A stretch of DNA of 64,000 nucleotides from Spartobacteria bacterium (lineage in GTDB: Bacteria; Verrucomicrobiota; Verrucomicrobiia; Chthoniobacterales; UBA6821). The translations under genes and the position numbers were made by a program. The stretch spans positions 102 to 64,101 of the forward strand of contig CANKJN010000005.1 of assembly GCA_947482345.1 (NCBI GenBank). The letters run 5' to 3'. Position 1 is the stretch's first letter. Every line of letters starts with the position of its first letter. Below are positions 12,666-44,396 of the stretch, piece by piece. The notes beneath the pieces were generated by a model that made no database searches, had not been told where the DNA came from, and saw only the letters and a list, made by a program, of their open reading frames with translations.

Positions 12666-13811
<1,146 letters not shown>

Positions 13812-13854
13812 AGAAGGGAGGATTAAGGAACCGCGCGCTTCCTTAAGGATTGTG

Positions 13855-14115
13855 CCTTCGACGTTCGTCTCTCGTCCTTAGACATCCTGAGATTGCTGAT
13901 TGTTAATTGTTGATTTTTTATCCCTCGATTGACGGCACTTTGCGCCCACAAAGCGGTGCCGCCCCCTTGGGGTCCCGCATCCGCGGGATCTGCCGCGTCA
14001 CCTCCAGGTGACTTGGCTCTCGACCTTCGTCCTTTGACCTCCTGAGATTGTTAATTGTTGATTGTTGATTACTGCCCCCTGACCTCCGACCTCCGACCTC
14101 CGACCTCTGATCCCT
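13855..14115. repeat. Mosaic heptamer-rich intergenic repeat block
   Basis: GATTGCT/AATTGTT/GACCTCC tandem heptamers. Shares a GTCTCTCGTCC...CTGAGATTGCTGATT segment with 16170-16480. Confidence 0.8.
13925..13997. repeat. REP-like palindromic repeat family C; inverted diverged copy at 35643-35714
   Basis: CACTTTGCGCCCACAAAGCGGTG...GGTCCCGC...GCGGGATC aligns by eye with the reverse complement of 35643-35714. Confidence 0.65.
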
Positions 14116-14228
14116 CCCGATCTCCCATTACCCATCCCCACCCACTCTGCGGGATCCTCCCCCATCAGCTCCTTCCTTCCATTCTCTTCACCAATTGACT
14201 TAGTCTGGTCTTAGTCTACCTTGACCTT

Positions 14229-14468
14229 ATGATCGTCACAATCCACGAAGCAAAAACACATCTTTCCCGCCTGCTCCATAGGGTGGAAGAGGGAGAGGAG
14301 GTTGTTGTCTGCCGGGGCAAGCATCCGGTGGCCCGCCTTGTGCCGGCCATCGCCACTCCGCGTCAGCGTCCGCGCGTGGGGGAGCCCACATCCGAGCCTT
14401 TCAGGATACCTGCCGACGCATTCTCTCCGATGAGCGCTGAAGAGTTGAAGGATTGGGGGATTGCGTGA
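14229..14468 (+). CDS. Phd/YefM-family antitoxin
   Basis: VTIHEAKTHLSRLLHRVEEGEEVVV. Confidence 0.92.
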   Translation: MIVTIHEAKTHLSRLLHRVEEGEEVVVCRGKHPVARLVPAIATPRQRPRVGEPTSEPFRIPADAFSPMSAEELKDWGIA

Positions 14469-14851
14469 GGATCCTGCTCGATACATGCACCTTCATCTGG
14501 CTGACCAGCGATCCCGGACAACTCGGACCCGCCGCCAAAGCCGCACTTGAGGATCCTCACAAAGAGAGATTTTTGAGCCTGGCCTCCATCTGGGAAACCG
14601 TATTGAAGCACAATACCGGCAAACTGCCGCTTCCCCGGTTACCGGAAGAGTGGATCGAGGAACAAGCCCAAATCCAGGACATCACGATACTGAATCTGGA
14701 ACGAGGTGTTATCTACAGGTCGGGAAAACTCCCCCCCGTCCATCGGGATCCATTCGACAGAATGATCGCTGCCGATTCCCTGATTCACAAAATGCCCATC
14801 CTGACACCCGACGGACCATATCGTGAGTATGGATGCGAAGTCATCTGGTAA
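14465..14851 (+). CDS. vapC: VapC PIN-domain toxin
   Basis: ILLDTCTFIW, SLASIWE, HRDPFDRMIAA. GTG start overlaps the antitoxin stop. Confidence 0.92.
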   Translation: MRILLDTCTFIWLTSDPGQLGPAAKAALEDPHKERFLSLASIWETVLKHNTGKLPLPRLPEEWIEEQAQIQDITILNLERGVIYRSGKLPPVHRDPFDRMIAADSLIHKMPILTPDGPYREYGCEVIW

Positions 14852-15009
14852 CCTACAACTCAGCCCTGCGCACCTTCAGCCTGAAGATTTCTCGCGCAAA
14901 GACGCAGAGAACGCAGAGGGAGAAGCCCAGAGGCTTGGTTCGACCTAGATTTTATCAGCAATAAAAACGCTAGAACTGATTGCGTATTGCATGTAATACG
15001 CAAGTTCAT

Positions 15010-16161
15010 ATGGCGGATATCAAAAGACTTTTAAGCCTTCCCGTAAGGGAAAAAGAGACGTTTTTTCTCTGGGGAGCTCGCCAGACCGGCAAGAGCACCC
15101 TGCTCAGATCAGCATATCCCGAAGCGAGGTGGGTGGACATGCTCAAGGCTGAGACCTTCCGCAGATACTCTACCAATCCGGAATACCTCAGGGAGGAGCT
15201 GGAACAGAGTGGGGAGAAGTTTGTCGTCATTGATGAAATCCAGAAAGTTCCCGCACTGCTTGACGAGGTGCAGTGGCTGCATGAGAACCGCCGCATCCAG
15301 TTTGCCCTTTGTGGATCAAGTGCCCGCAAACTCAAGCGCGGTCACGGCAACCTTCTCGGAGGTCGTGGTGCACGATTCGAGTTGTTTGGGCTGAGTGCCC
15401 GGGAACTGGGGCGGGATTTTGATCTTCACCGGATGTTGAATCACGGCACCCTTCCCAGGATCTACCTCACGGAGACACCCGGACGTCTGCTCAATGCCTA
15501 CGTGTCCGAATACTTGAAGGAGGAAGTCATGGCCGAGGGATTGGTGCGGCACCTGCCTCCATTCTCCAATTTCCTGAACGCCGCCGCCCTCTCGGACACC
15601 GAACAGGTGAACTACACCAACATAGCCCGCGAACTCGGCGTCTCACGCGAGACCGTAAGCGGGTATTTCGGGATCCTCGAGGATACCCTGATCGGTCACC
15701 TGGTACCCTCATACCGCAAGCGCCCCAAACGCCGCGTCGTCTCCGCGGACAGGTTCTATTTTTCCGACGTCGGAGTGGCAAACTTTCTTGCTCGGAGGGG
15801 CAAGGTCGTTCCGGGATCGGAACTCTACGGAAAGGCCTTTGAGAATTGGGTCTTTCATGAGTTGAGATGCTACGACTCCTACCGGGAACGATTCGCGGGG
15901 TTCTCCTACTGGCGTCTCAGTTCGGGAATCGAGGTGGACTTCGTGATCAATGATCTGGAGTGCGCCATCGAGTGCAAGTCCGCAGCCGTGGTTACTGATA
16001 AACACCTCAAAGGCCTCCGCGAATTGGCCAAAGACTACCCCAAGATCAAACGTCGCATCCTCATTGCACAGGAGCCACATTCCCGCCGCACCCCGGATGG
16101 TATCGAAATCCTGAACATCGAATCATTCCTCGATGAGCTCTGGGAGGGAAAGCTTTTCTAA
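15010..16161 (+). CDS. AAA_14 ATPase with DUF4143-type C-terminal domain
   Basis: GARQTGKST, IDEIQK, LCGSS, KAFENWV, EVDFV, IECKS. Confidence 0.88.
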   Translation: MADIKRLLSLPVREKETFFLWGARQTGKSTLLRSAYPEARWVDMLKAETFRRYSTNPEYLREELEQSGEKFVVIDEIQKVPALLDEVQWLHENRRIQFALCGSSARKLKRGHGNLLGGRGARFELFGLSARELGRDFDLHRMLNHGTLPRIYLTETPGRLLNAYVSEYLKEEVMAEGLVRHLPPFSNFLNAAALSDTEQVNYTNIARELGVSRETVSGYFGILEDTLIGHLVPSYRKRPKRRVVSADRFYFSDVGVANFLARRGKVVPGSELYGKAFENWVFHELRCYDSYRERFAGFSYWRLSSGIEVDFVINDLECAIECKSAAVVTDKHLKGLRELAKDYPKIKRRILIAQEPHSRRTPDGIEILNIESFLDELWEGKLF

Positions 16162-16169
16162 AATAGACC

Positions 16170-16480
16170 TTCGACTTTGGTCTCTCGTCCCTTGACCTCC
16201 TGAGATTGCTGATTTTTTACCCCTCGACTATCGACCTTCGTCCTTCGACTCACATGATTGCTGATTGCTCCCCGCAGATCCCCCTTCTGAATCAACAATT
16301 ACCAATGATGAATTAGCAATTTCACCCACCTTCGCACTTAGCCACCTTTAGCCTTTCCACTTTTTACTTCCCCCTGATCTCCGACCTCTGACCTCCGACC
16401 TCCGACCTTCGACAACGGAGATTGCTGATTGTAGATTGCTGATTTTTTATCTCTCGACTATCGACCTTCGTCCTTCGCCT
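16170..16480. repeat. Mosaic heptamer-rich intergenic repeat block
   Basis: CCGACCT x4, GATTGCT repeats, and two copies of TTTTTA(C/T)C(C/T)CTCGACTATCGACCTTCGTCCTTCG. Confidence 0.8.
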
Positions 16481-16531
16481 TAAGCGCTACCTCCTGGCTA
16501 CCAACTCCTACGCCGACGGCACCCTCTTTCC

Positions 16532-18088: not shown

Positions 18089-19587
18089 TGGTTACACGAT
18101 CCAAGCGATTTGCTACAGGAGTCGTCACGTCCTATGGAGCGATCTTGATCAATGTCTTCTACACGGTTTTTAGTGTCCGGTTGGCTCTGCACTATCTGGG
18201 CAAGGAGGAGTTTGGGCTCTGGGCGCTCGCCCTACAGATCTCCGGGTATATGGTATTACTCGAGTTAGGTATGTCATCTGCTATCAGCCGATTCCTTGCC
18301 GATCATAAGGATGATGTGAATGGAGACGAGTATGGTAGCCTGCTACTGACAGGTAGCATAGTTTTTGCGCTCCAGGGGGGCATAATAGCGATTGCGGGAG
18401 CAGCATTCTCCTTTGTCGCACCGGCCTTATTCCATGTTCCCCCCGCTCTGGCATCGGACTTCAGGTGGGTGCTGGTGATCAGCACCTCCCTCTCCGGATT
18501 CACCATTGCTACGCGCAGTGTTGGAGGGCCTCTCTGGGCCTTTCAGCGGATGGATATCACCAATCTCCTGGCGATCATGACGCTCGTACTCGGCTATGGA
18601 GCGCTGTGGTTGGGATTCAGGGCGGGATATGGAATCTACAGCCTGGCTTATGCCGGCATTCCAACCGCAATATTATCGCCAGTCATTATCTGCATCGTCT
18701 GTATAAGAAAAGGCTATTACCCAGCACGCGGCTCCTGGGGGAGGCCGCAGTGGGGGCTCTTCAAGAAACTTTTTTCTTTTGGCAAGGACGTGCTTCTGAT
18801 GTCGATTGGATCTCAATTGGTGAATGCCTCGCAGATCATGATCCTGAGCCGTTTTGTCGGTCTCGATGCGGCGGCGACCTTCTCCGTCGGGACGAAGTTC
18901 TACACGATGGGGCAGCAGTTTGTTGGGAAGGTTTTGGAGAATTCAGCACCTGCTCTTACGGAGATTTTTGTCAGGGGGGACAGGATTAGATTTAACGAAC
19001 GGTTCTGGAATGTCGTGAGCGTGACGGCATTTCTAGCAACAATTGGTGCGGCAGGACTTATGATGGGGAATCAGATACTGGTCACCTTCTGGACATCGGG
19101 AGTCATACACTGGAGTCTCGGCGCGGATGTGATTCTTGTAGCCCTTCTGCTAGTCACCTCACTCTCTCGCTGTTTTGTGAGCATCTTTGGTCTGGTTAGG
19201 GATCTCAGACCTGTACGATACATTTACTTCCTTGAAGGGTGCGTGTTCATCCTGCTCGCTCTTCCTGCCGTTAGGCAATTTGGAGTGATCGGTGTCTTGG
19301 CATCATCCCTCGTAGCCCATCTCTCCGTTACAATGGTCATCTCGAGTCGGGTTGCTACCGCATGGCTGGATTCGATGAGACCACTCGTACACATAATATG
19401 GAGCACTCTAGTGATCACTCTTGTGGTTCTTGTAGTGGCTGTTGCTATCAATTATTTTCATCCTTCAACAATCGTTGTCATTCCTCTCTCACTCCTCATC
19501 ATCCTCTCCGTTACCGTAGCAGTTTGGTTGATAATCCTCCCCAAAAAAATAAGGCAGGACATCTTCATTAGAATAAAAAACGCATGA
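18088..19587 (+). CDS. Wzx-like polysaccharide flippase
   Basis: LGKEEFGLW...LELGMSSAISRF, many hydrophobic segments, translationally coupled to the polymerase. Confidence 0.85.
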   Translation: MVTRSKRFATGVVTSYGAILINVFYTVFSVRLALHYLGKEEFGLWALALQISGYMVLLELGMSSAISRFLADHKDDVNGDEYGSLLLTGSIVFALQGGIIAIAGAAFSFVAPALFHVPPALASDFRWVLVISTSLSGFTIATRSVGGPLWAFQRMDITNLLAIMTLVLGYGALWLGFRAGYGIYSLAYAGIPTAILSPVIICIVCIRKGYYPARGSWGRPQWGLFKKLFSFGKDVLLMSIGSQLVNASQIMILSRFVGLDAAATFSVGTKFYTMGQQFVGKVLENSAPALTEIFVRGDRIRFNERFWNVVSVTAFLATIGAAGLMMGNQILVTFWTSGVIHWSLGADVILVALLLVTSLSRCFVSIFGLVRDLRPVRYIYFLEGCVFILLALPAVRQFGVIGVLASSLVAHLSVTMVISSRVATAWLDSMRPLVHIIWSTLVITLVVLVVAVAINYFHPSTIVVIPLSLLIILSVTVAVWLIILPKKIRQDIFIRIKNA

Positions 19588-19638
19588 ACAAATCAATACG
19601 GCTAGAACCAAGCACTTTTTTAACAACATAATTAAAAC

Positions 19639-20820
19639 GTGGCCAAGACAATCTCTAAACCAAAATTGCTCTATGTGGTCGATCCACCATTATCAGTTCC
19701 TGGCGGAATCAGCGTTTTGGCCCAAGTTTTTATTGAAGAGTTCGCAAATGATTATCAGATATATATACTATCAAGCGATCCTCCAGATTTCTTGAGGACC
19801 CATAAAATCGGGATTTTAATTGCTGATCATATTGAATGGAAACCTGCATCAGCCTCTCCAAGCTTCAGATATTTTAATTATGTGAAAGAAATCGCTTTGG
19901 AGGCTTTTAAGCTTGGAATTGACTTGGCTCATTTCCAAACAAATCTCTACAACTTCGGGAATCGATTCTTGGGAATGTCCCTTTCCCGCCAACTTCGCAA
20001 AAGAGGAATTCCTAGCATTTGGACAAATCATGCCATTGTTTCTCCGCTTGATGGATACGGCGGATTCACTCAATCACAGCTTGAAAAATGCTTGTTATTT
20101 CCTGTAGCATGGGTTGGGAAGTTCAACCAATTACAAAATACCGTGTATGAGATCCAAGTCTCAGAATTCAACCTGCGCACAATGCGCCGTGTCTGGTTTC
20201 CTTTCCGAGAGAAATTTCTTAAGATCTACCATTCAAAGATTAATTCAGCTGATGCGAACTACCTTCCTAGAAAACACACAATCTTAAATGTGGGCTACAT
20301 TTCATTCATCAAACGTCAAGACCTACTTGTTAAAGCATTTCTTAAGATTGCTGCAAGCTTCCCAAGTTGGGAATTACACTTGGCGGGACACGATACCAAT
20401 GACGGATGCCGATCGGAGATTTTAAAGTTAATTGAAAAATCCCCTTTGAAGGAAAAGATCCACTTCCTAGGTTCAGTATCTGACCCAGGTCCTGCCATGA
20501 AATCTTGTGGCATCTACGCCCATTGTTCAGACTTTGAAAGCCTAGGCCTTGCGCTCCAAGAAGCCATGTCTTATGGCTGCCCAATCGTGGCATCTAATAT
20601 TCCAGCCAATCGTGAGTTGCTCGCCCTACCAGACAGCGGACTACTATTTGAACATGGCAATGAGGATGATCTGGCGGTGCAATTAGAAACACTGATTGCT
20701 AGCACCGATCTAAGACTAAATATTGGACGCCAAGCGAGAAAACGATTTTTAGAATCGGGTATGAACCGTTCAACAATGCTTGATAAATACAAGTCTTTAT
20801 ATCAAAACATTCTAAACTAA
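19639..20820 (+). CDS. GT4 glycosyltransferase
   Basis: KRQDLLVKAF, FESLGLALQEAMSYGCPIVASNI. Confidence 0.88.
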   Translation: MAKTISKPKLLYVVDPPLSVPGGISVLAQVFIEEFANDYQIYILSSDPPDFLRTHKIGILIADHIEWKPASASPSFRYFNYVKEIALEAFKLGIDLAHFQTNLYNFGNRFLGMSLSRQLRKRGIPSIWTNHAIVSPLDGYGGFTQSQLEKCLLFPVAWVGKFNQLQNTVYEIQVSEFNLRTMRRVWFPFREKFLKIYHSKINSADANYLPRKHTILNVGYISFIKRQDLLVKAFLKIAASFPSWELHLAGHDTNDGCRSEILKLIEKSPLKEKIHFLGSVSDPGPAMKSCGIYAHCSDFESLGLALQEAMSYGCPIVASNIPANRELLALPDSGLLFEHGNEDDLAVQLETLIASTDLRLNIGRQARKRFLESGMNRSTMLDKYKSLYQNILN

Positions 20821-20841
20821 TACAAGTACAAATCTAACACC

Positions 20842-21480
20842 ATGCCAACGAGTCACCCAAATCAACTAAATCAGATTTTAGAAGTTGTTCTTAAAATACG
20901 CCCGAATTCCGTCCTTGATGTCGGGGTAGGATTCGGAAAATATGGTGTTCTAGCGCGGGAGTATCTCGAATTCTGGGATGGCACCCAAGATTATAAAAAC
21001 TGGAGACATAAAATTGACGGGGTGGAAGTTTTTGAACATTACCTCACTCCTTTACATCACTTCATCTATAATAAAATTTATATTGGAGAAGCCACTCAAG
21101 TCCTGCCGGAGTTAACAGAAAAATACGATTTATTATTAATCATCGACGTCATCGAGCATTTTACAGAGGCTGATGGTTTGGCTCTTCTCGATCTTTGCTT
21201 CAAGCGTGCGAAAAATGTACTTATCTCCACACCGCGGCAAATGAATTCCCAAGGAGATGCTTTTGACAATTCGTACGAAACGCACTTATTTCAATGGACT
21301 CAAAAACATTTTAATGCTTATCCAAATAGTGTCCGTTTGGACACAAACAACGATTCTTTAATTTTTCTCATTGGAGAAGATTCGAAAAAGGTTCGATTGG
21401 ACGCCAAAGACCGCTTCGAACGACAGTGGCCATCTCTGCATCGGTTTCTTCTTCGCATCAAGCGTACACTCATAGGCTAA
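20842..21480 (+). CDS. Class I SAM-dependent methyltransferase
   Basis: VLDVGVGFGKYG, DGVEVF, DVIEHF. Confidence 0.85.
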   Translation: MPTSHPNQLNQILEVVLKIRPNSVLDVGVGFGKYGVLAREYLEFWDGTQDYKNWRHKIDGVEVFEHYLTPLHHFIYNKIYIGEATQVLPELTEKYDLLLIIDVIEHFTEADGLALLDLCFKRAKNVLISTPRQMNSQGDAFDNSYETHLFQWTQKHFNAYPNSVRLDTNNDSLIFLIGEDSKKVRLDAKDRFERQWPSLHRFLLRIKRTLIG

Positions 21481-22157
21481 ATCATTTGTGGGGACTAAAA
21501 AAATGTGCGCTCGTAGTAGTATCCGAAAAACTAAATATTTGCGTCGAGCGCTAAACAATAGATATGCAATCTCAGGCTGACTTAACCTTATCTTCCATGA
21601 GTCAGTTCACCCATTACAAACAAGTAATTGACCTGTCCCCCTTTTGAATGGGACAGTTGAAAAATGAAGTTCTGCTGGGCAATACGGAAAGCAGAACAAC
21701 ATGAAATAAAACTGATCCGGACCAGCGGACACCGCAATTCTCGCATATCAATTCAATCTCCCCATGAGTCATTTCATGCGTTACAGTGCGGCCACTAAGA
21801 CCGCATTCTTCAGTCACCTGACTGCATTCAAGCTGAAACTTGATGTCAAACGGCGACCCACCAGCCGATTCTTGCTCAGCGGCATTAAGCACGGGTTGGA
21901 TAGATGCACCCGGGTTTGCAAGACCAAGATAACTCACAACCCTTGTCCAGAATCACTCAAATGTGCGGTGGTCAGCGAGATCGACCGCTGAGATTGTTAT
22001 GCGTCTGCAAACATGATGCATCGACTTGGACTCAAGCACGAGCATCTCGTGGTATCTCGAGCTCTTGATTAACAAAACCCAAATATTGCCGCAATGAATA
22101 CATCAGATCATATAATGTCTTGATTAGAAGAATCCTTCCTCATCAGGTGATGATTTC

Positions 22158-23045
22158 ATGAACACATTTCTCCATCCAAAAAGGGTCGTACAGGCTTTAT
22201 ACTATGGCTTCAAGTGGCGGTTGAAAAAGCTACTACGTCTGCCGGAAAAACCTAGACTACCCGTGGTCAGTGGGGATCTTGACGCCGCATTGTATCACCA
22301 CAGAAAAATAGCAACCCTTGTTTCCGCGCATTTGTCGGATATGCAAATGAAAGAAGGATTAACCGGATGCGAAATTGGATCTGGGGATTGTTTGGTAATT
22401 GCCGATCTGCTCCTTGGAAAGGGGTATCAAAAAGTCTATCTTGTGGAGAAGCAACGCATCGTCGTCAACAAACGTCAGATTGAAATCCTGGAACGTCTTC
22501 GGGAGAGTGGACTCCCAAACAAGCTTGAAGCGGTGATTGCTGGAACTTCACCCTCACTCAACACGGAGAAAGTCACAGTCATTCCGGAATATTTTGAAAA
22601 TGCAGTACTGACAGATAAAGTTGATTTTATCTTTTCACATGACGTGATTGAGCATGTGGAGGATCTAAAGGGTTTTTTCCTTAAGTGTGCCTCGATTCTT
22701 TCTCCAGATGGACTTATGGTTCACAAGTTCGATCTTTCAGGTCACGAGTTCTTCGAATATCCGATACCTCACCTTGATTTTCAGACCTATTCCGATTGGC
22801 TCTATGATCTGATGTTCCCCAAATACCGGAGATCGTGCAGGTGGTTTCTGGATGAAATTACCGATGCGGTTCGATCCGCCGGTTTCACGTGCATTGAAGC
22901 TATAACGCTGACTTCCGAGGATGCCGATTATGCACGAAAGCTGTATCCTCAGCTTCGCACTAAGGCTAGGCGGCGCACATTGGAACAGATTCTTCCGATG
23001 GATGTGCTGCTAACAGCACGTCTAACTCGAACTGATCTTCAATAA
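22158..23045 (+). CDS. Class I SAM-dependent methyltransferase
   Basis: CEIGSGD, FIFSHDVIEHVED, LSPDGLMVHKFD. Confidence 0.8.
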   Translation: MNTFLHPKRVVQALYYGFKWRLKKLLRLPEKPRLPVVSGDLDAALYHHRKIATLVSAHLSDMQMKEGLTGCEIGSGDCLVIADLLLGKGYQKVYLVEKQRIVVNKRQIEILERLRESGLPNKLEAVIAGTSPSLNTEKVTVIPEYFENAVLTDKVDFIFSHDVIEHVEDLKGFFLKCASILSPDGLMVHKFDLSGHEFFEYPIPHLDFQTYSDWLYDLMFPKYRRSCRWFLDEITDAVRSAGFTCIEAITLTSEDADYARKLYPQLRTKARRRTLEQILPMDVLLTARLTRTDLQ

Positions 23046-23301
23046 CGTGACCTCGAGGATTTGAGCCAAGACGTGATTTAGTCTTTGGGACAACTAACAA
23101 TGCAAATTAACCCTCAGGGACTAACCCTCAGTCTGGATCGAAATTCCAACCCCTCTTAATATCCCCTTTGTTCATCATATTTAAAATGGATTAGTGAGAT
23201 TCAGCATCTGTTTCAAAAACTTAAGCCAAATCATTATATAATATTTTATTTTTATCAAATAATCTAATCTATAAAATCAATTACCAAAATAGAAAACTCT
23301 A

Positions 23302-35189: not shown

Positions 35190-35566
35190 TACTCGATACG
35201 AACGCTCTCTCGGCGTTGCTCGACGGAGATGAGGATCTTCGTGTCATTCTAAGCAAGGTCTCGCAGGTTCTGCTTTCCCCGATTGTTCTTGGTGAATACC
35301 GCTTCGGGATCCTTGCATCAAGGCACCGACAGGAGTACGAGAAGGAACTGAGGCTTCTGGAGAAATGTCTTCATGTCCTGATTTTGGATGCCAGAACCGC
35401 GGTCGAATATGCGGCGGTGAGGAATGAGTTGAAGTCAGCCGGGACCCCAATTCCATGGCACGATATCTGGATTGCCGCGCAGGCTAGGCAGCACGATGTC
35501 AGGATTTTATCCAAGGGTAGCCATTTTGATGTCGTTGATGGTGTGAAAAGAGTGAGTTGGGGATGA
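35180..35566 (+). CDS. vapC: VapC PIN-domain toxin
   Basis: ILDTNALS, IVLGEYRFG, GTPIPWHDIWIAA, HFDVV. Confidence 0.9.
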   Translation: MEVILDTNALSALLDGDEDLRVILSKVSQVLLSPIVLGEYRFGILASRHRQEYEKELRLLEKCLHVLILDARTAVEYAAVRNELKSAGTPIPWHDIWIAAQARQHDVRILSKGSHFDVVDGVKRVSWG

Positions 35567-35804
35567 GGATTAAGGATTAAGAATGGAGGATGGAGGATGG
35601 AGGACAAAGTCGACAGACGAGAACCAATCCGCTGGGAATCGGCGCGGTGGATCCCGCTTTAGCGGGACCCGTAAGGGTGTCACCGCTTTGCGGGAGCAAA
35701 GTGACATCAATCGACAGTCGAGTGCCGAGGGAGAGCGGAAGGAGGTCAGAGGTCAGGGGTCAGAAGCCTCATTCAGCAGTCAGAACCAAGCCTGTGATCA
35801 CAGG

Positions 35805-35857
35805 CGCGGTAGACTACGACGCAGTCGTAGCCCCAACGGGGCGCCGCGGCTTCCGGG
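35805..35857. repeat. REP-like repeat family B; copies at 44290-44342 (inverted) and 48758-48810 (diverged)
   Basis: GCGGTAGACTACGACGCAGTCGTAGCCCCAACGGGGCGCC, containing two hairpins. Confidence 0.8.
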
Positions 35858-35953
35858 GGGAAGTGGCGTCAAATCAACAATCAGCAGTCAGCAGTCAGCA
35901 GTCAGCAGTCGCTGATATTGTCAATTGAGCGGCGATGTCATAAATTTGAGGTG

Positions 35954-36184
35954 ATGGAAAGTGTTGTCCAAGTTGAAAAAGCTCCCGAGCGCGTGCCGGT
36001 TTCCCCCGAGGTGGCAGAGCGTGCGGCGGATCTTGTGCGCCGTTTTTCTGAGTGTTTTTGGTTCCGTCACCCGAAGGCGGCGATTCGCTTCACCGACGAT
36101 GTGAGGTTGGTGATAGAGCACCTGCGTGACTACGGTGACAAGAGGGCGTGGGCCGCCGCAGCAGAGTTGCAGCGCTGTCTGTAA
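35954..36184 (+). CDS. Small hypothetical protein, putative partner of the downstream nucleotidyltransferase
   Basis: 76-aa ORF (ECFWF...EHLRDYG...ELQRCL) 11 bp upstream of the NTase-like gene. Confidence 0.6.
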   Translation: MESVVQVEKAPERVPVSPEVAERAADLVRRFSECFWFRHPKAAIRFTDDVRLVIEHLRDYGDKRAWAAAAELQRCL

Positions 36185-36195
36185 CTTCCAAAGGA

Positions 36196-37035
36196 ATGCC
36201 GCTAACGCCTTTTCAAAAAGAGGTTCTGAAGGTTCTGGTCTCCAATCGTTCGGAGCAGAGTCATGTGGCCGGAGGATTGGTGCTGAATGCGCCGGAGAAT
36301 TCGTCACGTTATTCGCGTGATTTTGATTTCTTTCACGAGGCGGTGGAGGATTTGGTCATCGCAAGCGAGCAGGATGTCCTCTCGCTTGAGAAAGCGGGTT
36401 TTCTTGTGCAAAAGGTCGAGCGTGACGGCGAGTGGTCGAAGCTGGTTTCCTTTAGGAAGGCCTATGTCATCGAGAATGGTGAGAGGGTTGAGTTGGACTG
36501 GGCTCATGATTCAGCGTTCCGGTTTTTCCCGATCGTTCCCGACGAGTTATTGGGTTGGAGGCTGCATCTCTTTGATATGGCGACGAACAAGGCGCTTGCG
36601 TTGTCCGCCCGTATGGAGACGCGTGATTATGTGGATATGGTTGAGCTTTCACGGCGTTTTCCCCTTGAGGCCATCATCTGGGCGGCTTGCGGCAAGGATC
36701 CGGGATTCAATCCCCTGTCTCTGTTCAGGATGATGATGAGGTTTGCCCGGATCGACCCAGCAAAACTTGAGGAGATTCAGGCACGCAGACTGGATCCAGT
36801 CGCCCTGAAGGAGGAGTGGATCATGGTTTCCGACAAGGCCCGGGAGGAAATAACGCTTTTAGCGGATGAGCGTCCGGAGATTCCGATCGGGGTGGCCTTC
36901 GTGGATGAGCAAGGGAATCCCGGATGGATCCGCTCGAACCCTTCCCTAAAGATTCACCATCCTTCTCTTAGAGGATGCTGGCCATCGTGGTCAGGAGTGA
37001 ACTCCTTCAGGAGGCCACCAACCGGTGATGGTTGA
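36196..37035 (+). CDS. AbiEii/AbiGii-like nucleotidyltransferase-fold protein
   Basis: HVAGGLVL...RYSRDFDFF (GG...S.D.D), NKALAL...RDYVD. Confidence 0.72.
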   Translation: MPLTPFQKEVLKVLVSNRSEQSHVAGGLVLNAPENSSRYSRDFDFFHEAVEDLVIASEQDVLSLEKAGFLVQKVERDGEWSKLVSFRKAYVIENGERVELDWAHDSAFRFFPIVPDELLGWRLHLFDMATNKALALSARMETRDYVDMVELSRRFPLEAIIWAACGKDPGFNPLSLFRMMMRFARIDPAKLEEIQARRLDPVALKEEWIMVSDKAREEITLLADERPEIPIGVAFVDEQGNPGWIRSNPSLKIHHPSLRGCWPSWSGVNSFRRPPTGDG

Positions 37036-37221
37036 TTCAGAGGGGCCAGGGGCGTCTCATGGATTCGAATTTTGTAAAAAGACGATATAAATAAAGCGAT
37101 GTTCTCGCGCCTCCTCGGCTTTTACGGTAGAAAAGTCTTTGGCAAAGCCGTTTGTCCGTATTCTGTTTGAAGCTGGAATAATCGGAAGTCTTCCTCGATC
37201 TGTCTTCTGGTCCCGAAACCC

Positions 37222-40143
37222 ATGACCATCTCCATCATCACTCCAAGTTACGGCCAGCTCGACTGGCTGAAGCTGTGTGTTGCTTCAGTGGCTGATCAGA
37301 ATCAGCCACTGAAGCAAGGGAGCTGGGAGCTGGAAGCTGGAAGTTTGGGGGGAGATGCACCTGCGGGGCAGGGGGTGCGAGTGGCTGAGTCAAAGGTGGG
37401 TAAAATTGCTAATTCATCATTGGAAATTGTTGATTTAGAAGAGGGATCCGCAGGGAACCCTCAGCAATCAGTAATTAGAAATCAGGAATCACCAATCGCC
37501 TCCCCGCTTCGCGTGGAGCACATCATCCAGGATGGGGGGACTCCGGGGATCGAGGAATTCGCCAGGGAGTTGGGTGAGGATCTCAAGTCGCGGTATGGTG
37601 GAGATTTTGTTTCAGACCTTCAAACCTTCGAACTTTTGCACCTTCGCACTGCGTCCGGTTACACGCTCCGCGTGTTCAAGGAACCGGACGCCGGCATGTA
37701 CGATGCGATCAACAAGGGGATCGCCAAAATGAGTGGCGATCTCTGGGCATGGATCAACAGCGACGAGCAGTATCTTCCCGGGACGCTGGCCTATGTGGTG
37801 CGGTGGTTTGAAGGACGCCGCGATGCCGACATTCTCTGCGGCGATGCCCTGCTCACGGATGACTCCGGCAAAGCACTCTCCTACCGCAGGATTGTGACTC
37901 CGTGGTGGAATCATACACGGTTGGTGCATCTTTCCTCACTGAGTTGCGCGAGTTTTTACCGGCGTTCCATCGTGGAGAGGGGAGGTGTTTTTGACACGGT
38001 TTGGCGCTCCATCGGGGATGCCGAGTGGATGGCCCGGATGATGAAAGACGGTGTCCGGATCGAGGCTTGCGGGAAGCTCTTCTCGACTTTCGCCTTCACG
38101 GGTCAGAACACGAGCGAGTCTCCGCTTGCCAGGAAAGAATCCGACGAATGGAAGAAGGCGGCTGACGCCCCCTCCGCATGGATGATGCTGCCGGTGATCG
38201 GAGTGCATCGTTGCCGGAAATTTCTCGCAGGCGCCTATCGTCGCCGCGATGTGAGTTATGCGATCCACCGTCAGGGCGAAGGGCGGAAGGAATTTCGTGC
38301 CGAGGGGATCGGTTGGGACTGGCCCTCCGCCCTATCCTCGATCCAGTCGGCTGTTTCCAAGATGGTTCCCAACCCTCATGTGCCTTATGTCGACTCTACG
38401 AGAGTCTTAGGCACATCCCTCATGGAGACAACCTATGAGGGTCTCTCCACGGTTCTCCTGGATGCGGGATCAAGTGGTGGGGGAGTGCTCGCCGTTGATT
38501 TTGCGAACACCCATGTCGTGACCATGCGGCGTCATGATCCCAAGTTCATGAATCTCACGGCGTGCATCGACCTGATCGCTCCGGATGGGATGCCCTTGGT
38601 GTGGGCAATGAATGCCAAGGGTGCGAATCTTGAGGATCGGGTTTACGGGCCGACCTTCACGCGGCGTTTCCTTGCATCATGTCCCGCGGATAAAACCCAC
38701 TACCTGGTGGGAGGCTCGGAGGAGTGCGGTCGCAAATTCCGGGAGCAGATGCTGGCGTTGAACCCTTCGCTGAATTTCGTGGGCGGGTATCATGGTCGCT
38801 GTTCCGGTGATGGTGAATTGGACGATCAGAAGAAGGTGAAGGCCGAGATTCTCGAAAAACGCCCCGATTTCATCTGGGTGGGCTTGGGGACACCCAAGCA
38901 GTATGCATGGATCCATCGGATCAAGCTGCAGCTCGATCACGGGGTGCTGTTGGCGGTCGGCTTTGCCTTTGATGTGAATGCGGGGATGAAACCCGATGCT
39001 CCCGCATGGATGCAGCGGCTTGGTCTCACCTGGATCCACAGGATGGCCTCCGAGCCGGGGCGGCTGGCAGGACGGTATCTGAAATGGAATACGCTCTTTA
39101 TCAGCTATTGGATTGCCGAATTCGTCGGCGGAGGGGTTCGCTCGGTGAAACTTCATCTCCGCAACGCATTCCTGCGCTTCGTGGATCTCCTTTCGCGGGA
39201 GATCTTCGATCTGGAGGATGGTCGCCCTCTGGGCCGTGCCCTCCTATTCGGACAGGGTGGTGGAGTCCGCGTCATCGGGCATGAGGGGCTGCCACCGCTC
39301 ATTCCCAGATTCATCCCTCAGGAGCGCCTGACCTACTGGAAGCAGTCGATCGGTTTCACGACCCCTCCTAGGCCGGACTTTCCAAGGCTCGAGGGGGTGT
39401 CCGCCGCCCCTGTACCCTCATCACCCCGCGTGCTGAATGTGGTGCTCACCCACTTGGACGGAGACCGGTTGGTCCGCACCAGGGAGCGCTGGAGGGATGT
39501 CTGCAGGGAAGAGGATCTCTGGATCGCCTTTGGTGGGAAACAACGGAACTTCCGCAATCTCGGGATGGAAAGATCCGTCTTCATCGGGGATGCGGGTCTG
39601 AGAAGGGAGGACAACCAGAGGGAGAAGCAATCTTACACCGGCATCTTTCACGCCATGGCACCCGTGGTCGAGAGGGAGAGGCCCGATTACATTTATCTCT
39701 GTGAGTATGATCATGTGTCCCTGCGCTCTGATCTGAATGCCCTTCAGGTGGCCGAGATCACCGCCGAGGGAGCCGATGTGATGGGGCACTGGCTCTACCG
39801 TGTGGACGGGACCAGCCACTACCACATGCTCTATCATCAATCCGATCCGGGCTTCCTGCGTTACTGGCAGTCCGTTTCACGCCGGGAGGAGAAGGGTGTC
39901 GTGCTCTCGATGTTCGGAAGCGGATCGCTCTGGTCGAGGGAGGCCTTTCTGGCCATCGCCTCAAGGACACAGCAGATCCCCTGTTATCTGGAGCTGTACC
40001 TCCCCACGCTGGCCCATCACCTCGGCTACCGGGTGAGATGCTGGGATGAGTCGCGCCACATGATCTCCAATCTACCCTCGAGGAAATGGACGATTGACGA
40101 GGCCATGAACAGGGATTGCCTGACCATTCATCCCGTGAAATGA
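37222..40143 (+). CDS. Multi-domain glycosyltransferase: GT2 + WecB/TagA/CpsF (GT26) + small unknown domain + putative GT-A-like domain
   Basis: SIITPSY, GMYDAINKG, WINSDE (GT2); PDGMPLVW, VGLGTPKQ, GFAFD (TagA); C-terminal LCEYDH...HPVK. One uninterrupted 973-aa ORF. Confidence 0.85.
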   Translation: MTISIITPSYGQLDWLKLCVASVADQNQPLKQGSWELEAGSLGGDAPAGQGVRVAESKVGKIANSSLEIVDLEEGSAGNPQQSVIRNQESPIASPLRVEHIIQDGGTPGIEEFARELGEDLKSRYGGDFVSDLQTFELLHLRTASGYTLRVFKEPDAGMYDAINKGIAKMSGDLWAWINSDEQYLPGTLAYVVRWFEGRRDADILCGDALLTDDSGKALSYRRIVTPWWNHTRLVHLSSLSCASFYRRSIVERGGVFDTVWRSIGDAEWMARMMKDGVRIEACGKLFSTFAFTGQNTSESPLARKESDEWKKAADAPSAWMMLPVIGVHRCRKFLAGAYRRRDVSYAIHRQGEGRKEFRAEGIGWDWPSALSSIQSAVSKMVPNPHVPYVDSTRVLGTSLMETTYEGLSTVLLDAGSSGGGVLAVDFANTHVVTMRRHDPKFMNLTACIDLIAPDGMPLVWAMNAKGANLEDRVYGPTFTRRFLASCPADKTHYLVGGSEECGRKFREQMLALNPSLNFVGGYHGRCSGDGELDDQKKVKAEILEKRPDFIWVGLGTPKQYAWIHRIKLQLDHGVLLAVGFAFDVNAGMKPDAPAWMQRLGLTWIHRMASEPGRLAGRYLKWNTLFISYWIAEFVGGGVRSVKLHLRNAFLRFVDLLSREIFDLEDGRPLGRALLFGQGGGVRVIGHEGLPPLIPRFIPQERLTYWKQSIGFTTPPRPDFPRLEGVSAAPVPSSPRVLNVVLTHLDGDRLVRTRERWRDVCREEDLWIAFGGKQRNFRNLGMERSVFIGDAGLRREDNQREKQSYTGIFHAMAPVVERERPDYIYLCEYDHVSLRSDLNALQVAEITAEGADVMGHWLYRVDGTSHYHMLYHQSDPGFLRYWQSVSRREEKGVVLSMFGSGSLWSREAFLAIASRTQQIPCYLELYLPTLAHHLGYRVRCWDESRHMISNLPSRKWTIDEAMNRDCLTIHPVK

Positions 40144-40921: not shown

Positions 40922-40990
40922 GCGGTTCATGAAGAATTGTTGATTGTTAATTGTTAATTGCTTCCGCCCCCAACTGAAACCAACGGATTC

Positions 40991-41395
40991 ATGCCTAGCT
41001 ATCGATGGCCTGAGGAACTGCCCTGCTATCAGGAAGCGCGCAGATTTCGTATTGCGGTCGCTGACTTATGCATGCTGTTACCAAAAACAGAGGAATACCG
41101 TCTTAAAGATCAGATGCTTCGTGCAGCCCGCTCCGTGACGGCAAATATTGCCGAGGGTTTTGGGAGGCATCATCATCAGGAAAATATCCAATTTTGTCGG
41201 CAGGCGAGGGGATCGCTGATTGAAATGAGGGATCATCTCAATACTGCCGCAGATGAGGGTTTTGTGGAGAACGTGCAAGTTGGTGATGTTCTCAAGATGC
41301 TTGAATCATCCCTTGCATCCCTGAATGGATATCTTGTCTATCTCAAGAATTGCGCTTCTGATTCCAAACTCAAACAATCACCAATTAACAATTAA
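40991..41395 (+). CDS. Four-helix-bundle protein (23S rRNA IVP-like family)
   Basis: EEYRLKDQMLRAARSVTANIAEGFGR...ARGSLIE; flanked by AATTGTT/AACAATT heptamers. Confidence 0.9.
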   Translation: MPSYRWPEELPCYQEARRFRIAVADLCMLLPKTEEYRLKDQMLRAARSVTANIAEGFGRHHHQENIQFCRQARGSLIEMRDHLNTAADEGFVENVQVGDVLKMLESSLASLNGYLVYLKNCASDSKLKQSPINN

Positions 41396-41414
41396 CAATC
41401 TCCTCCTTTTGCCG

Positions 41415-42449
41415 ATGCCCTTTCCCAATCAGCAATCAGCAATCAGCAATCAAAAGTCGTTTGCGCCGACAATTCTTGCTGCGGGTGTCGTCTCCCTGTT
41501 GATCACCTCTCTCTTCCTGTCGGTCCAGTACAGCTACGGGATAGGAACGACCACGTACTCTCTGGCCCAGTATATCTGGCGGACTTGGAATGAGAGCGAG
41601 GACATGGGACACGGCATGATCGTCGTGCCGGCCGCCCTGTTCCTGATCTACCATGATCGGGAAAGGCTTCTTTCAATCACTCCCAAGCCGGGATGGGGAG
41701 GATTGGTGCTCCTGATCACAGGGTTGATGATCTACTGGTGCGGTCATTTGGCCGACGTCACCTTTGCAGGACTTTTCAGCCTGATCGTCATCCTGGCCGG
41801 AACCATCTGGTGGTTGCTCGGTTGGGAGTTCCTGAAGGCGCTTTCCTTTCCCATCGCCTTCCTGATTTTTGCGATCCCCTTTCCCGGCATCGACTCCATG
41901 GTGGCGCTTCCCCTGCGCTATCTGATGTCGAAGCTCGGGGTGGTGATCTTGAATCTCCTCGGAGTACCCGTGGTGCTGGTGGGTACGGGCATCCTCTCGG
42001 CTCCCGATGCGGCGCAGCACCTTGCAACGGGGCAGAAATTCGCCGTCGATGTGGCCAATCCGTGTAGCGGGATCCGTTCGCTCTTCGCTCTGATGATGGT
42101 GGGGGCGCTTTTCGCCCATTTCACGCTCAAGGGTGCCTGGAGGAAGTGGATTCTCTTTCTCTGCACGCCGCCGCTGGCCGTGCTCGGCAATCTGGTGCGA
42201 ATCCTGATGCTCACGCTCGGAACGGTTGCCTTCGGAAGCGAATTCGCGTTAGGGAAAAACCCTCTGGAGCATCCCTCCTGGTTCCACATGCTGGCCGGTT
42301 ATCTGGTCTTCATGGTGGCGCTTGCCGGAATGATGGGGGTTGCCTCCCTGCTCGGGCGTCTCCCCGGTGGTGTCCGAAGCAGCGCACCGTCGCCTGCGGC
42401 GCGGCCGAACCAAGGGGTTCCCGAATCGGATTCCGTCGATCGCTACTGA
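41415..42449 (+). CDS. Exosortase (EpsH family)
   Basis: HGMIVVP, VANPCSGIRSL (Cys), NLVRI (Arg), WFHMLAG (His). Start placed at ATG 41415. Confidence 0.9.
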   Translation: MPFPNQQSAISNQKSFAPTILAAGVVSLLITSLFLSVQYSYGIGTTTYSLAQYIWRTWNESEDMGHGMIVVPAALFLIYHDRERLLSITPKPGWGGLVLLITGLMIYWCGHLADVTFAGLFSLIVILAGTIWWLLGWEFLKALSFPIAFLIFAIPFPGIDSMVALPLRYLMSKLGVVILNLLGVPVVLVGTGILSAPDAAQHLATGQKFAVDVANPCSGIRSLFALMMVGALFAHFTLKGAWRKWILFLCTPPLAVLGNLVRILMLTLGTVAFGSEFALGKNPLEHPSWFHMLAGYLVFMVALAGMMGVASLLGRLPGGVRSSAPSPAARPNQGVPESDSVDRY

Positions 42450-42465
42450 TTGGTGTGATCCCTAA

Positions 42466-42844
42466 GGAAGCGCTGATTAAATCCCATGAAGGCCGCTGAA
42501 GAGCATTTGCTGATTTTTGAAGGCGCGAGTGCTGGGCGATACCCGCAGCGGTCTCGCCCGAGCGAGCAACGCCACAAAAATCGACAAATGGCTTCAGCCC
42601 TTCGGGTTGCGGAGATCCAAGCCAAAGGCCACAAAGCCTTTGGCTTCGTGCCGTGGCACGGGGGCCAACTGTGTTGGCTTGGCACTTTGCTTGCCCGGCC
42701 GTTGCTTCGCATCCGTTACGGCAGCCCGCAGAGGGGATGCTCGTGCCAAGCCGCCTTACCCACGGCCCATGGCTTGCCCGGTCGTTGCTTTGCATCCGCT
42801 ACGGCTTCCCGCAACGGCCTCTATGCGATTTAATCAGCGTTTCC
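42466..42844 (+). mobile_element. IS5-type MITE, copy 2 (379 bp)
   Basis: Same TIRs and arms as 3821-4094; CTAA duplicated at 42462-42465 and 42845-42848. Confidence 0.88.
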
Positions 42845-42872
42845 CTAAGTCCCTCCCTGATCCGCCTGCAAG

Positions 42873-44141
42873 ATGAATTCCCCCGCAGCGAGCCAGGAAA
42901 GGGAGCATCACAGACCCCGGATCCTGCAGATTTTCTCACGCTATCGGGAGTATGGCGGCGAGGAGGGGAGTGTCTACCGGATCGGTGATGCGCTGCATCG
43001 AGATTTCGACATCGGCTTCTTCCTGGCATCGAGCGGGGATGCCTTTTCCGGCGGGGTTCTCAAGAAGGGCCTCTCTACGATCAAGGCATTCTCCAATTGG
43101 ACCATCGTGGATCAGTTGCGCCGTTACCAGCAGCTCGGGCGGTATGATTGCTGGCTGATTCACAATGTCTTCCCGGTCATGTCTCCGGCTGTCTACGAGC
43201 TGGCCTTCACCTTGAGGATTCCGATCATTCATTATCTGCATAATTACCGGATGGGGTGCGTCAACGGTTTCTTTATGAATCATGGAGAGCCGTGCCAGCG
43301 GTGCATGCACGGGAGCTTCCTTCCCGCATTCCAGACCGCATGCTGGCATGGGAGTCACGTTCAGAGCGGCATCATGGGTGCCGTCACTAGCCGTGCACGG
43401 GGCATGGATCTCTTTCACCGGGTGCACCACTGGGTTGCGATCAGCAGTGCGCAGAAAAAAGAGCACGTGGAGATGGGGATCCCCGCTGACCGGATCTCCG
43501 TCATTCCTCATTTTTTTGAATCAAAGGGGGAGGCGCCCGATTATCCGGATCAGGGAGATGTGCTCTTTGTCGGAAGACTCTCCGCCGAGAAGGGAGTGGA
43601 TCGTCTTCTCATGGCATGGGAGGCCATTCAGGATTGCGGGAGAACCCTCTGGATCGTGGGTGACGGGCCCGAACGCAGTAAACTCGAGGAGATGGTACGA
43701 AGCAGAAGTCTCCGGAGTGTCCGCTTCACCGGCTTTCTGGAACGGGAGGCGATGGCATCAATCTGGGAAAAAGCGGCCTGTTCGATCGTCCCCTCGGTCT
43801 GGAAGGAGCCGTTCGGCATGGTGGTGCTGGAATCATGGGCCAAGGGGCGCCCCGTCATCGCCCACCGGATCGGTGCGCTCGAGGAGATTGTCTCCGATGG
43901 AACCGACGGCCTTCTCGTCCCCGTGGATGAACCCGGGGCATTGGCGGAAGCGATCCTCTCGATCCTTAATGACCCTGCTCGCGGGAAAGCCATGGGGCGT
44001 GCCGGAGCAGAGAAGCTTAGACACCAATATTCCAAGCAGGTTTGGCAGGATGCGATACAAGGGATTTTTGCGCACTTGCCATCACGCAATTCGTTCCATG
44101 AAAAGTCGAAGGTCGAAGGTCGAAAGACGAGTGTCGATTAG
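42873..44141 (+). CDS. GT4 glycosyltransferase
   Basis: GGEE, HNVFPVMSP, GRLSAEKG, EPFGMVVLESWAKGRPVI. Confidence 0.9.
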   Translation: MNSPAASQEREHHRPRILQIFSRYREYGGEEGSVYRIGDALHRDFDIGFFLASSGDAFSGGVLKKGLSTIKAFSNWTIVDQLRRYQQLGRYDCWLIHNVFPVMSPAVYELAFTLRIPIIHYLHNYRMGCVNGFFMNHGEPCQRCMHGSFLPAFQTACWHGSHVQSGIMGAVTSRARGMDLFHRVHHWVAISSAQKKEHVEMGIPADRISVIPHFFESKGEAPDYPDQGDVLFVGRLSAEKGVDRLLMAWEAIQDCGRTLWIVGDGPERSKLEEMVRSRSLRSVRFTGFLEREAMASIWEKAACSIVPSVWKEPFGMVVLESWAKGRPVIAHRIGALEEIVSDGTDGLLVPVDEPGALAEAILSILNDPARGKAMGRAGAEKLRHQYSKQVWQDAIQGIFAHLPSRNSFHEKSKVEGRKTSVD

Positions 44142-44396
44142 CAGTCGTGATTGCTGATTGTTGGTTGTTGGTTGTTGCTGACCATAGAGATTGTTGATTG
44201 TTAATTGCTGATTGCTGTTCCCTGTTCCCTGTTCCCACTTTCCGCTTTCAGGTTTCAGGTTTCATCCCTCATAATTGACACCACTTCCTCCCGGAAGCCG
44301 TGGCGCCCCGTTGGGGCTACGACTGCGTCGTAGTCTACCGCGTGCCATCCCAGGCGCTTGGTTCATCCTTCATAATTTCCTCGTCCTCCCCAACCC

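Follow-up and report, generated by a model that had tools for sequence, protein, structure and literature searches.

How do small accessory genes come and go in a surface-polysaccharide locus that encodes no recombinase? The question is raised by a stretch of 64,000 nt (the window) from a Spartobacteria bacterium (assembly GCA_947482345.1, contig CANKJN010000005.1, positions 102 to 64,101), where a freshwater member of the Chthoniobacterales (Verrucomicrobiota) has its hypervariable exopolysaccharide/exosortase locus. Toxin-antitoxin (TA), ATPase and four-helix-bundle (FHB) cassettes stand among its biosynthetic genes, and the gaps hold tandem arrays of 7-nt units. Here, we show that joints of cassette presence, absence and substitution lie at such heptamer arrays more often than the background gives. 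The arrays appear to mark the joints of accessory-gene exchange and may also serve as those joints; taken as a whole, cassette exchange at array joints by host recombination is the best explanation that we have, with a probability of roughly 55%. An initial annotation, made from the letters alone, had suggested testing whether cassette breakpoints fall in heptamer blocks, and the joints of gain, loss and swapping do fall largely in arrays: in a CCGACCT array at an empty allele on a metagenome contig (L040), at two alternative modules encoding an AbiEii-like or a Fic protein, and in the arms of FHB cassettes at two junctions. The annotation's remark that no integrase was in view was borne out by profile searches, which found no recombinase among the locus proteins; the whole assembly holds three tyrosine recombinases (PF00589), none of them on this contig.

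The locus is anchored on its left by the conserved glf gene (UDP-galactopyranose mutase; 12666 to 13811, plus strand; PF03275, E value of 4e-70), which is 84 to 98% identical among congeners, while the genes downstream of it are different in each genome. In the window, glf is followed by a Phd-VapC cassette with its promoter/operator (14188 to 14851, +; PF02604 and PF01850), a type II TA pair whose antitoxin and toxin genes overlap (14229 to 14468 and 14453 to 14851), and by an AAA_14/DUF4143 ATPase cassette with a downstream module, D3c (14963 to 16255, +; PF13173 and PF13635). This block is enclosed by two copies of a 42-nt target, D2. The left copy, D2a (14069 to 14110, +), consists of TTACTGCCCCCTGA followed by (CCGACCT)n, and the right copy of this CCGACCT module, D2b (16364 to 16405, +), is 92% identical to positions 14069 to 14107 over 39 nt. 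The nonrepetitive prefix of D2, TTACTNCCCCCTGA, has just two occurrences in the whole genome, 14069 and 16364, one on each side of the block. The longer segments that the initial annotation had seen shared between the two sides are real (13855 to 13901 against 16168 to 16214, 89%; 14069 to 14107 against 16364 to 16402, 92%).

An allele lacking the block is found in L040, which was reached through homologues of the Wzy-like protein encoded to the right. Its order is the glf 3' end, 107 nt, one D3/GATTGYT module, one CCGACCT (D2-like) module and the Wzy-like gene; both the Phd-VapC/AAA block and a ca. 93-nt hairpin repeat, described below, are missing. In a three-way alignment, L040 tracks the left flank into the CCGACCT array and the right flank from there, which puts the crossover inside the array; its alignment to the right flank starts at 16388 and runs into the Wzy-like gene. 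The insert itself holds only Phd, PIN and AAA_14/DUF4143 genes, with no transposase, integrase or other mobile-element gene. With D2 doubled around the block and single in L040, and with no mobility gene, the block has the published characteristics of an insertion with long target duplication, in which direct repeats of >30 bp flank the insert and a single copy is found in the insert-free genome (Furuta, Abe & Kobayashi 2010, PMC2853133). Our case resembles that class in its lack of a mobility gene and in the 42-nt D2, present twice here and once in L040; it differs in that the class is known for restriction-modification genes with unique targets, whereas here the cargo is a TA pair plus an ATPase and the target is mostly a heptamer array of a repeat family. 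Among the same-genus genomes compared, we found no empty site for the block; G020 and G002 carry other genes between glf and the Wzy-like gene. Nobusato et al. are said to have treated insertion with long target duplication in 2000.

The two cassettes of the block also vary separately, as judged by metagenome contigs and depth (Phd-VapC at depth 0 in X11, AAA at depth 0 in X16). X16 carries the TA block from 14024 to 14853, upstream arrays included, and no AAA gene. X11 carries the AAA block from 14963 to 16255, which ends on the first base of a GATTGCT array, and one X11 contig links 13800 to 16255 via 107 other letters. Joints with sides of <30 nt (e.g., 13917>16419, 14109>16379 and 34722>35783) were discounted, since they may be artefacts of the repeats.

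The second case is one of substitution. An AbiEii-like pair encoding 88-aa and 295-aa proteins (35913 to 37027, +) is a strain-variable cassette, its depth being 0 in X13 and X16, and in contigs L053 and L054 another module stands in its place, that of L053 encoding a Fic protein. The left joint of these alternatives is an (AATCAGC/AGTCAGC)n array (35873 to 35910, +), and the right joint is GTTGATTCAG (37027 to 37040, +), the remnant of a GATTGYT-type array. The window, L050 (with 23 units), L053 and L054 have the AATCAGC array in common and then split into an AbiEii-like or a Fic module, and the switch points can be read at nucleotide resolution, inside (AATCAGC)n on the left and at the GATTGYT-type remnant on the right. 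Homology to L053 resumes at 37027 to 37040, where AAATTGCTAATTCATCATTGTAAATTGTTGATT precedes it in L053, and what L050 retains of the Fic-type module is an 18-nt stub enclosed by two AATCAGC arrays. The AbiEii-like pair is also found at unrelated loci in G008 and G005, there too among arrays and hairpin repeats.

Just upstream of these alternatives lies a second TA pair, VapBC2 (34845 to 35590, +), a unit that runs from an operator repeat through vapB and vapC into the first units of a GGATKRA array. Its genes overlap (34938 to 35189 and 35180 to 35566), as in a type II pair; the toxin belongs to PF01850, and VapB is a very weak ribbon-helix-helix (RHH) match (E value of 0.16). The unit is 97.6 to 100% identical in contigs L050 to L054 despite different flanks. 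In L050 to L052, (GTCGAAG)x9-19 adjoins its left end; its right end lies within the GGATKRA array, which starts at the TGA stop and is variable in unit number.

FHB cassettes provide the third case. The FHB gene of the window (40991 to 41395, +) encodes a member of the 23S rRNA intervening-sequence (IVS) protein family (PF05635, E value of 3e-27; TIGR02436, E value of 5e-26). Its 5' heptamer arm (40936 to 40963, +) forms an inverted repeat with its 3' arm (41372 to 41399, +), 28 nt at 86% with a core of 19 nt at 100%. RNA duplex folding of long flanks over-extended, and the arms were taken from repeat detection and direct reading. The initial annotation had described arrays on both sides of this cassette; the inverted arms are its own, but the block at 44105 to 44264 that had been included is internal to a separate indel comprising a GT4 and a PAS gene. 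All eight PF05635 genes of the genome lie between heptamer arms when read by eye, and the two arms of a copy are complementary to each other, while their sequences differ from one copy to the next; by Tandem Repeats Finder (TRF), arrays lie within 150 nt on both sides of 6 of the 8, versus 1% of genes.

Two junctions illustrate how these cassettes are distributed. The junction between epsI-like and exosortase (epsH) genes is empty in G012/L001, L002, L003, L004, L006 and L018, where stop and start overlap or lie a short gap apart; the window, G002 and L005, and G021 carry an FHB cassette at this point. The three FHB lineages found there are 21 to 29% identical and have different arms, their flanking genes being 56 to 71% identical, and the nearest relative of the window FHB (52%) is a paralogue encoded elsewhere in the same genome, on a different contig. 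The MarR/glf junction is a 3-nt gap in the window and G012 and holds an FHB cassette in G005 and G020; in G007, such a cassette lies upstream of both MarR and glf. No target duplication is visible at the filled FHB junctions. Among near-identical strains the window cassette is fixed, its 5' arm being one 7-nt unit shorter in X11, X13 and X16. A CAATCAG array (41426 to 41452, +) is translated within the new N terminus of EpsH, and L005 has the same array in the same place, beside an unrelated FHB.

These cases stand in a locus dense in arrays. The 30.5-kb locus has 23 arrays where 5.5 would be expected, or 7.5 versus 1.8 per 10 kb (4-fold; Poisson p of 2e-8), and the window holds 8 of the 14 GATTGYT arrays and 5 of the 8 CCGACCT arrays of the whole genome. 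Their placement is uneven: the 9.7-kb block from 19.6 to 29.3 kb has a single array, in coding sequence, versus 22 in the other 20.8 kb, which agrees with the earlier statement that core glycosyltransferase junctions lack them. Each of the six arrays named in the initial annotation was recovered by TRF: GATTGTT/GATTGCT at 14046 to 14070, 16255 to 16269, 16420 to 16444 and 44189 to 44217; AATTGTT at 40935 to 40960; CCGACCT (as GACCTCC/CTCCGAC) at 14081 to 14107 and 16379 to 16413; TCAGCAG at 35881 to 35910; GGATGGA at 35561 to 35604; and AAATGAA at 34699 to 34729. The last lies just upstream of the probable true start of a minus-strand MBOAT gene; the alignment of the G012 MBOAT protein begins only at residue 46. 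By direct reading, the array blocks span 13812 to 14228, 16162 to 16531, 34699 to 34729, 35561 to 35910, 40935 to 41452 and 44105 to 44264.

Genome-wide, period 7 is the commonest tandem period (TRF, 432 rows). Some 414 merged heptamer arrays are present in the host assembly, a 2.36-Mb, 93% complete metagenome-assembled genome (MAG) of which the window is contig C5, and 70% of them are intergenic, versus ca. 15% intergenic DNA (85% being called coding). The arrays are therefore a feature of the whole genome, not peculiar to accessory genes or to this locus. All gap statistics depend on a rough gene caller, whose codon-usage step skipped the low-GC block and to which open reading frame (ORF) length was added. 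In codirectional gaps, purine-rich arrays follow the upstream stop at a median of 12 nt and pyrimidine-rich arrays precede the downstream start at a median of 20 nt; divergent and convergent gaps obey the same polarity, purine left and pyrimidine right. The purine-rich units mostly bear TGA and lie directly 3' of stops, and their pyrimidine-rich complements lie directly 5' of starts, on either strand. A stop triplet, mostly TGA, is present on one strand in 80% of intergenic units versus 40% of random intergenic 7-mers, so that three or more units close all three frames. There are >130 unit types, with about half of the arrays of the form TGAANNN. Only ca. 11% of arrays have an inverted partner in the same gap, and most are therefore solitary. 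Unit number varies widely between strains (GTCGAAG x9-19, AATCAGC x4-23, and the 7-nt indel in the FHB arm).

The initial annotation had also foreseen that arrays would be associated with TA and FHB genes across the genome. Besides the FHB genes, this holds for toxin genes: outside the window, an array lies within 500 nt of 14 of the 24 PIN, ParE, DUF4143 and AbiEii genes (58%), versus 25% of all genes (p of 5e-4) and versus 32% of genes with a gap of at least 150 nt on one side (p of 0.007).

The gaps of the locus are filled by a genus-wide mosaic repeat system, made up of tandem heptamer arrays and the ca. 93-nt multi-hairpin element, and we propose that small self-contained cassettes (Phd-VapC, AAA/DUF4143, AbiEii-like or Fic, and FHB) would be gained, lost and swapped at the arrays. 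Most of these cassettes would be moved by no enzyme that they encode but by host recombination, or by template switching during replication, for which the short repeated arrays may supply portable homology; the incoming DNA would probably have been acquired by uptake from related strains. Two products would be expected, namely, insertion with long target duplication and allelic substitution of cassettes within shared flanks. FHB cassettes form a separate subclass, in which the two arms would pair and enclose the gene in a hairpin, much like that of the ORF-bearing 23S rRNA IVS.

Several observations weigh against this explanation or speak for its main rival, according to which arrays and hairpins are bystanders that accumulate by slippage and by their own spread in dispensable gaps, such as accessory cassettes import or generate, while the cassettes move by ordinary homologous recombination in conserved flanking genes and the arrays have no role. 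About 20% of all gaps of at least 150 nt hold an array, many of them adjoining ordinary or housekeeping genes, so some coincidence of cassette ends with arrays is to be expected, and controlling for gap length leaves a moderate enrichment at toxin genes (the 58% versus 32% given above). In copies from distant congeners (G008, G011, G016 and G021), Phd-VapC homology starts ca. 40 nt before the ATG, extends as far as the stop codon and does not end in arrays, TA homology blocks stopping at gene boundaries; GACCTCY-type arrays lie a further 85 to 130 nt upstream in all three genomes with upstream sequence. The ends of one indel, GT4b/PAS (42450 to 45115), are free of arrays, the left being the EpsH stop plus a miniature inverted-repeat transposable element (MITE) and the right a gene overlap. 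The rapid change in unit number means that arrays can arise in place. The VapBC2 site upstream of WecG is seemingly identical in all strains seen, and for this reason we do not count VapBC2 as moved. L040 is the single clean empty allele with target duplication and comes from a diverged strain, its Wzy-like protein being 81% identical; given this divergence and no outgroup polarity, insertion is indistinguishable from deletion between older direct repeats. Metagenome contigs break at repeats, and for several breakpoints the basis is a short contig or a joint with short sides. Finally, neither cassette movement nor a recombination intermediate was observed, and exchange at arrays is suggested by comparison of sequences.

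Even so, we find it difficult to reconcile the bystander account with three results. D2, with its genome-unique prefix, is doubled exactly at the ends of the block and single in the empty allele; the AbiEii-like and Fic modules switch inside arrays at nucleotide resolution; and most GATTGYT and CCGACCT arrays of the genome are in this locus. We regard bystander repeats as possible but rather unlikely.

A more ambitious reading is that the arrays, the 93-nt repeat and the FHB genes make up one lineage-wide cassette-exchange system, in which the arrays would act as attC-like joints through repeat structure, not through an integrase, for the capture, duplication and swapping of promoter-bearing toxin, defence and FHB cassettes, and pentameric FHB would possibly bind the arrays with their 7-nt period. 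We consider this improbable. If it were true, the excess of heptamers in bacterial genomes would be a footprint of cassette exchange.

Less probable again is a dedicated system, integron-like but with no classical integrase, in which arrays are the sites of a specific protein, be it pentameric FHB or an enzyme encoded elsewhere. FHB genes always lie between arrays, unrelated FHB lineages recur at one junction with no target duplication, array polarity at gene ends is strict, and the locus has no recombinase, all of which such a system would accommodate. However, FHB is a helical bundle of ca. 130 aa that matches no catalytic family, and the differing unit sequences from cassette to cassette leave no common site. 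The TA, AAA and AbiEii-like cassettes have no adjoining FHB, and the 42-nt duplication of D2 fits recombination better than a site-specific cut. The initial annotation had suggested an undescribed mobility system; nothing that we found points to a dedicated enzyme, and the signatures fit known enzyme-free routes.

Least likely of all, in our estimation, is that the arrays are simply functional RNA or DNA elements, kept as all-frame stops, leaders, or RNase III or terminator hairpins, and found at cassette ends as insulation of selfish genes, since such a role, although in keeping with the stop triplet in 80% of units, with array starts at or within ca. 12 nt of stop codons, with the long stems formed by inverted array pairs and with the RNase III cleavage of a related heptamer stem in the Coxiella IVS (PMC4990558), leaves the duplicated D2 and cassette substitution at arrays unexplained, sits poorly with unit numbers and array presence that differ among near-identical strains, and is in any case compatible with, not exclusive of, exchange at arrays by host recombination.

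We also dropped the idea that the arrays are scars of repeated 7-bp target duplications; the orientation of the FHB arms is inverted rather than direct, and nothing that duplicates 7 bp was seen. Cyanobacterial short tandemly repeated repetitive (STRR) sequences are tandem 7-mer repeats too, and were rejected as an explanation, the relatives named by a scan of genome contigs being freshwater Verrucomicrobiota (Spartobacteria/Chthoniobacterales) MAGs.

A close parallel to the proposed exchange at array joints comes from Neisseria, where minimal mobile elements are alternative whole-gene cassettes in the same flanks, with no mobility genes and with uptake and homologous recombination presumed, and where intergenic mosaic elements (NIME) are built on dRS3 repeats. 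As there, our locus has alternative cassettes in the same flanks and mosaics of short repeats near surface-structure genes. Unlike there, the repeats are tandem 7-mers of many units plus a 93-nt hairpin, not 20-bp dRS3 flanking repeat sequences (RS), and the host is a verrucomicrobium. In integrons, small cassettes, often TA, are arranged in series between structured attC repeats and moved by the IntI integrase. Our locus is similar in its serial small TA-type cassettes parted by structured repeats, and differs in having no IntI, in cassettes with their own promoters and in junctions made of tandem arrays. By eye, and with no attC model run, we found no attC-like single imperfect palindrome with R'' and R' cores; the 93-nt element is a set of several hairpins.

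For the FHB cassettes, the nearest likeness is the ORF-bearing IVS of 23S rRNA, which is also found in Leptospira; we know of no function for this FHB family. In Coxiella burnetii, the S23p IVS has a PF05635 ORF within an inverted-repeat stem with tandem heptamers 5' of it, and was proposed to be selfish or once mobile (Warrier et al. 2016, PMC4990558). The window cassette shares the PF05635/TIGR02436 protein and the inverted repeats around the gene, which could pair into a long stem. A search for sequencing runs of any kind listed DNA runs only. The cassette differs in lying between epsI-like and exosortase genes, not in rRNA, and in its arms, which are entirely heptamer arrays and specific to each copy. 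A literature search joining IVS protein, four-helix bundle and heptamer returned nothing relevant.

Many bacterial genomes have an excess of tandem heptamer repeats, the role of which is unsettled. Over-represented intergenic heptamers have been reported in Xanthomonas and Nostoc (Rehm et al. 2015, PMC4692102) and in Geobacter metallireducens (PMC2700814); they are described there, as here, mostly in co-oriented gaps near stops or starts and sometimes as convergent inverted pairs, but as one or a few G-rich units read as quadruplex or regulator sites, in contrast to the >130 types, dominated by TGAANNN, of our genome. Searched for S23 or four-helix-bundle terms, the texts of PMC4692102 and PMC2700814 give no connection of arrays with this gene family, and the passages found there make none with cassette indels. 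The present locus offers nucleotide-level cases in which arrays are the joints of gain, loss and substitution of TA and defence-like cassettes, with no recombinase nearby. If general, exchange at arrays would be a cheap, enzyme-free means of diversifying surface-polysaccharide and defence loci in abundant freshwater bacteria. It would also turn an old descriptive puzzle about heptamers into testable questions: are arrays sufficient as homology, and does FHB bind to them?

The gene content of the locus was established by Pfam and NCBIfam profile searches of the window proteins. Supported families are, in the left part, glf, Phd, PIN, AAA_14/DUF4143, Wzy-like, Wzx-like and several GT4 glycosyltransferases; in the middle, a GMC oxidoreductase, an aldo-keto reductase, the MBOAT gene on the minus strand, the second PIN and a WecG/GT2 fusion; and in the right part, an EpsI-like DUF3485 protein, FHB and exosortase EpsH, followed by GT4, a PAS protein and a 5'-3' exonuclease. 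Of the gene calls made earlier, Phd (PF02604), the two PIN genes, AAA_14/DUF4143 and FHB stand, but a confident nucleotidyltransferase (NTase) does not: the gene at 36148 to 37035 has a sub-threshold AbiEii match (PF08843, E value of 0.0024, 18.3 bits against a cutoff of 22.5), and its 88-aa partner has no family and no AbiEi match, so that we do not class the two as an AbiE pair. Nor do the ORFs called at 35583 to 35928, which we rejected as genes; this sequence is two copies of the ca. 93-nt multi-hairpin repeat plus arrays. An Rfam scan of the window gave no family at threshold, and there is no rRNA in the window. A look-up of the exact glf protein gave the haplotype of the window and no other.

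The ca. 93-nt repeat is found between duplicated D3/GATTGYT modules downstream of glf (13916 to 14016, +). The mosaic module D3a (13855 to 13915, +), CTTCGAC-type units followed by a GATTGYT array, is a direct repeat of 14010 to 14070 (89%) and of 16168 to 16214 (89%). The hairpin copy at 13916 to 14016 matches 35643 to 35714 on the minus strand, within the copy at 35620 to 35715 (−), and further copies lie at 35783 to 35872 (−), 44275 to 44364 (+) and 48754 to 48845; the two minus-strand copies, with a GAGGTCA array between them, make up the segment from 35610 to 35872 (−). Pieces of the repeat read ttgacggcac...gtgccgcccc, ttgggg and ...cttggttc. Heptamer arrays of the same unit surround every copy or border it on both sides, e.g., TTCATCC/TTCATAA around 44275 to 44364. 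A degenerate GATTGYT array (16290 to 16313, −) is inverted relative to 13892 to 13915 and 14047 to 14070 (83% and 79% complementary), a pairing that is no more than suggestive given the local abundance of the GATTGYT family.

Other observations concern the neighborhood of glf. In L024 (G002; 18300 to 18800), a different TA pair, RHH-PIN, lies directly 3' of glf, and the site is a recurrent landing place of TA pairs. In L019 (G012; 14850 to 15320) and L023 (G005; 2125 to 2400), an inverted-heptamer hairpin element follows glf and is itself followed by a second copy, ca. 30 nt long, of the glf 3' end, apparently another long target duplication. In the MarR/glf neighborhood of G008 (contig C76; L032, 1 to 13000), ca. 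30 heptamer arrays are packed into 13 kb, along with two FHB cassettes, 96% identical and separated by ca. 4 kb, which have GGATTAG/AGGAGTG and ATCCGTA arrays on their flanks.

Around VapBC2, a 24-nt operator-like sequence, GGTCAGGACATAGGTAACACATGT, upstream of vapB (34821 to 34868) is a tandem duplicate in the window and single in L050 to L052. Copies of 54 to 57 nt of the WecG 5' end (window 37217 to 37273) lie upstream of the VapBC2 mosaic in L050 (675 to 731) and L051 (2229 to 2282), which hints at a second target duplication; the whole mosaic would then sit between two WecG starts. The arrays of near-identical strains are in places greatly expanded (GTCGAAG x19, AATCAGC x23 and TGAAACC x10 versus 0 to 5 units in the window), namely, at L050 980 to 1114 and 2001 to 2164 and at L051 2544 to 2604 and 3355 to 3422. 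Stop-free arrays (CAATCAG, GGGAGCT and TCAGMAA) are translated within the N termini of EpsH and of the WecG/GT2 fusion (41415 to 41460 and 37318 to 37497), and the EpsH N terminus of the window is unlike that of relatives with an empty junction. Genome-wide, period-8 arrays are also mainly intergenic (67%), unlike those of periods 6, 9 and 12; they may be heptamer arrays plus one base, or a second class.

The low-GC glycosyltransferase block (19600 to 29300, +) has a GC content of 36 to 51%, versus ca. 60% for the genome, with tight junctions and no intergenic arrays. Nearly array-free, it looks like a recent import that the repeat system has yet to colonize.

At the right end of the locus, a block of a GT4 and a PAS-domain gene (42873 to 45115, +) is an indel relative to G012, L003 and L005, and the heptamer block at 44105 to 44264 and the hairpin repeat at 44275 to 44364 lie inside it, not at its ends. 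The element at its left (42458 to 42842), which has terminal inverted repeats and no relation to the heptamers, is a MITE that varies between strains; X9 and X11 show its precise empty site (383 letters skipped, 8 shared). Parts of it are present in dozens of copies at 88 to 99% identity in same-genus genomes, and a MITE-like element also lies at 49824 to 49952, the terminal inverted repeats being GGGAAACGCTGATTAAATC.

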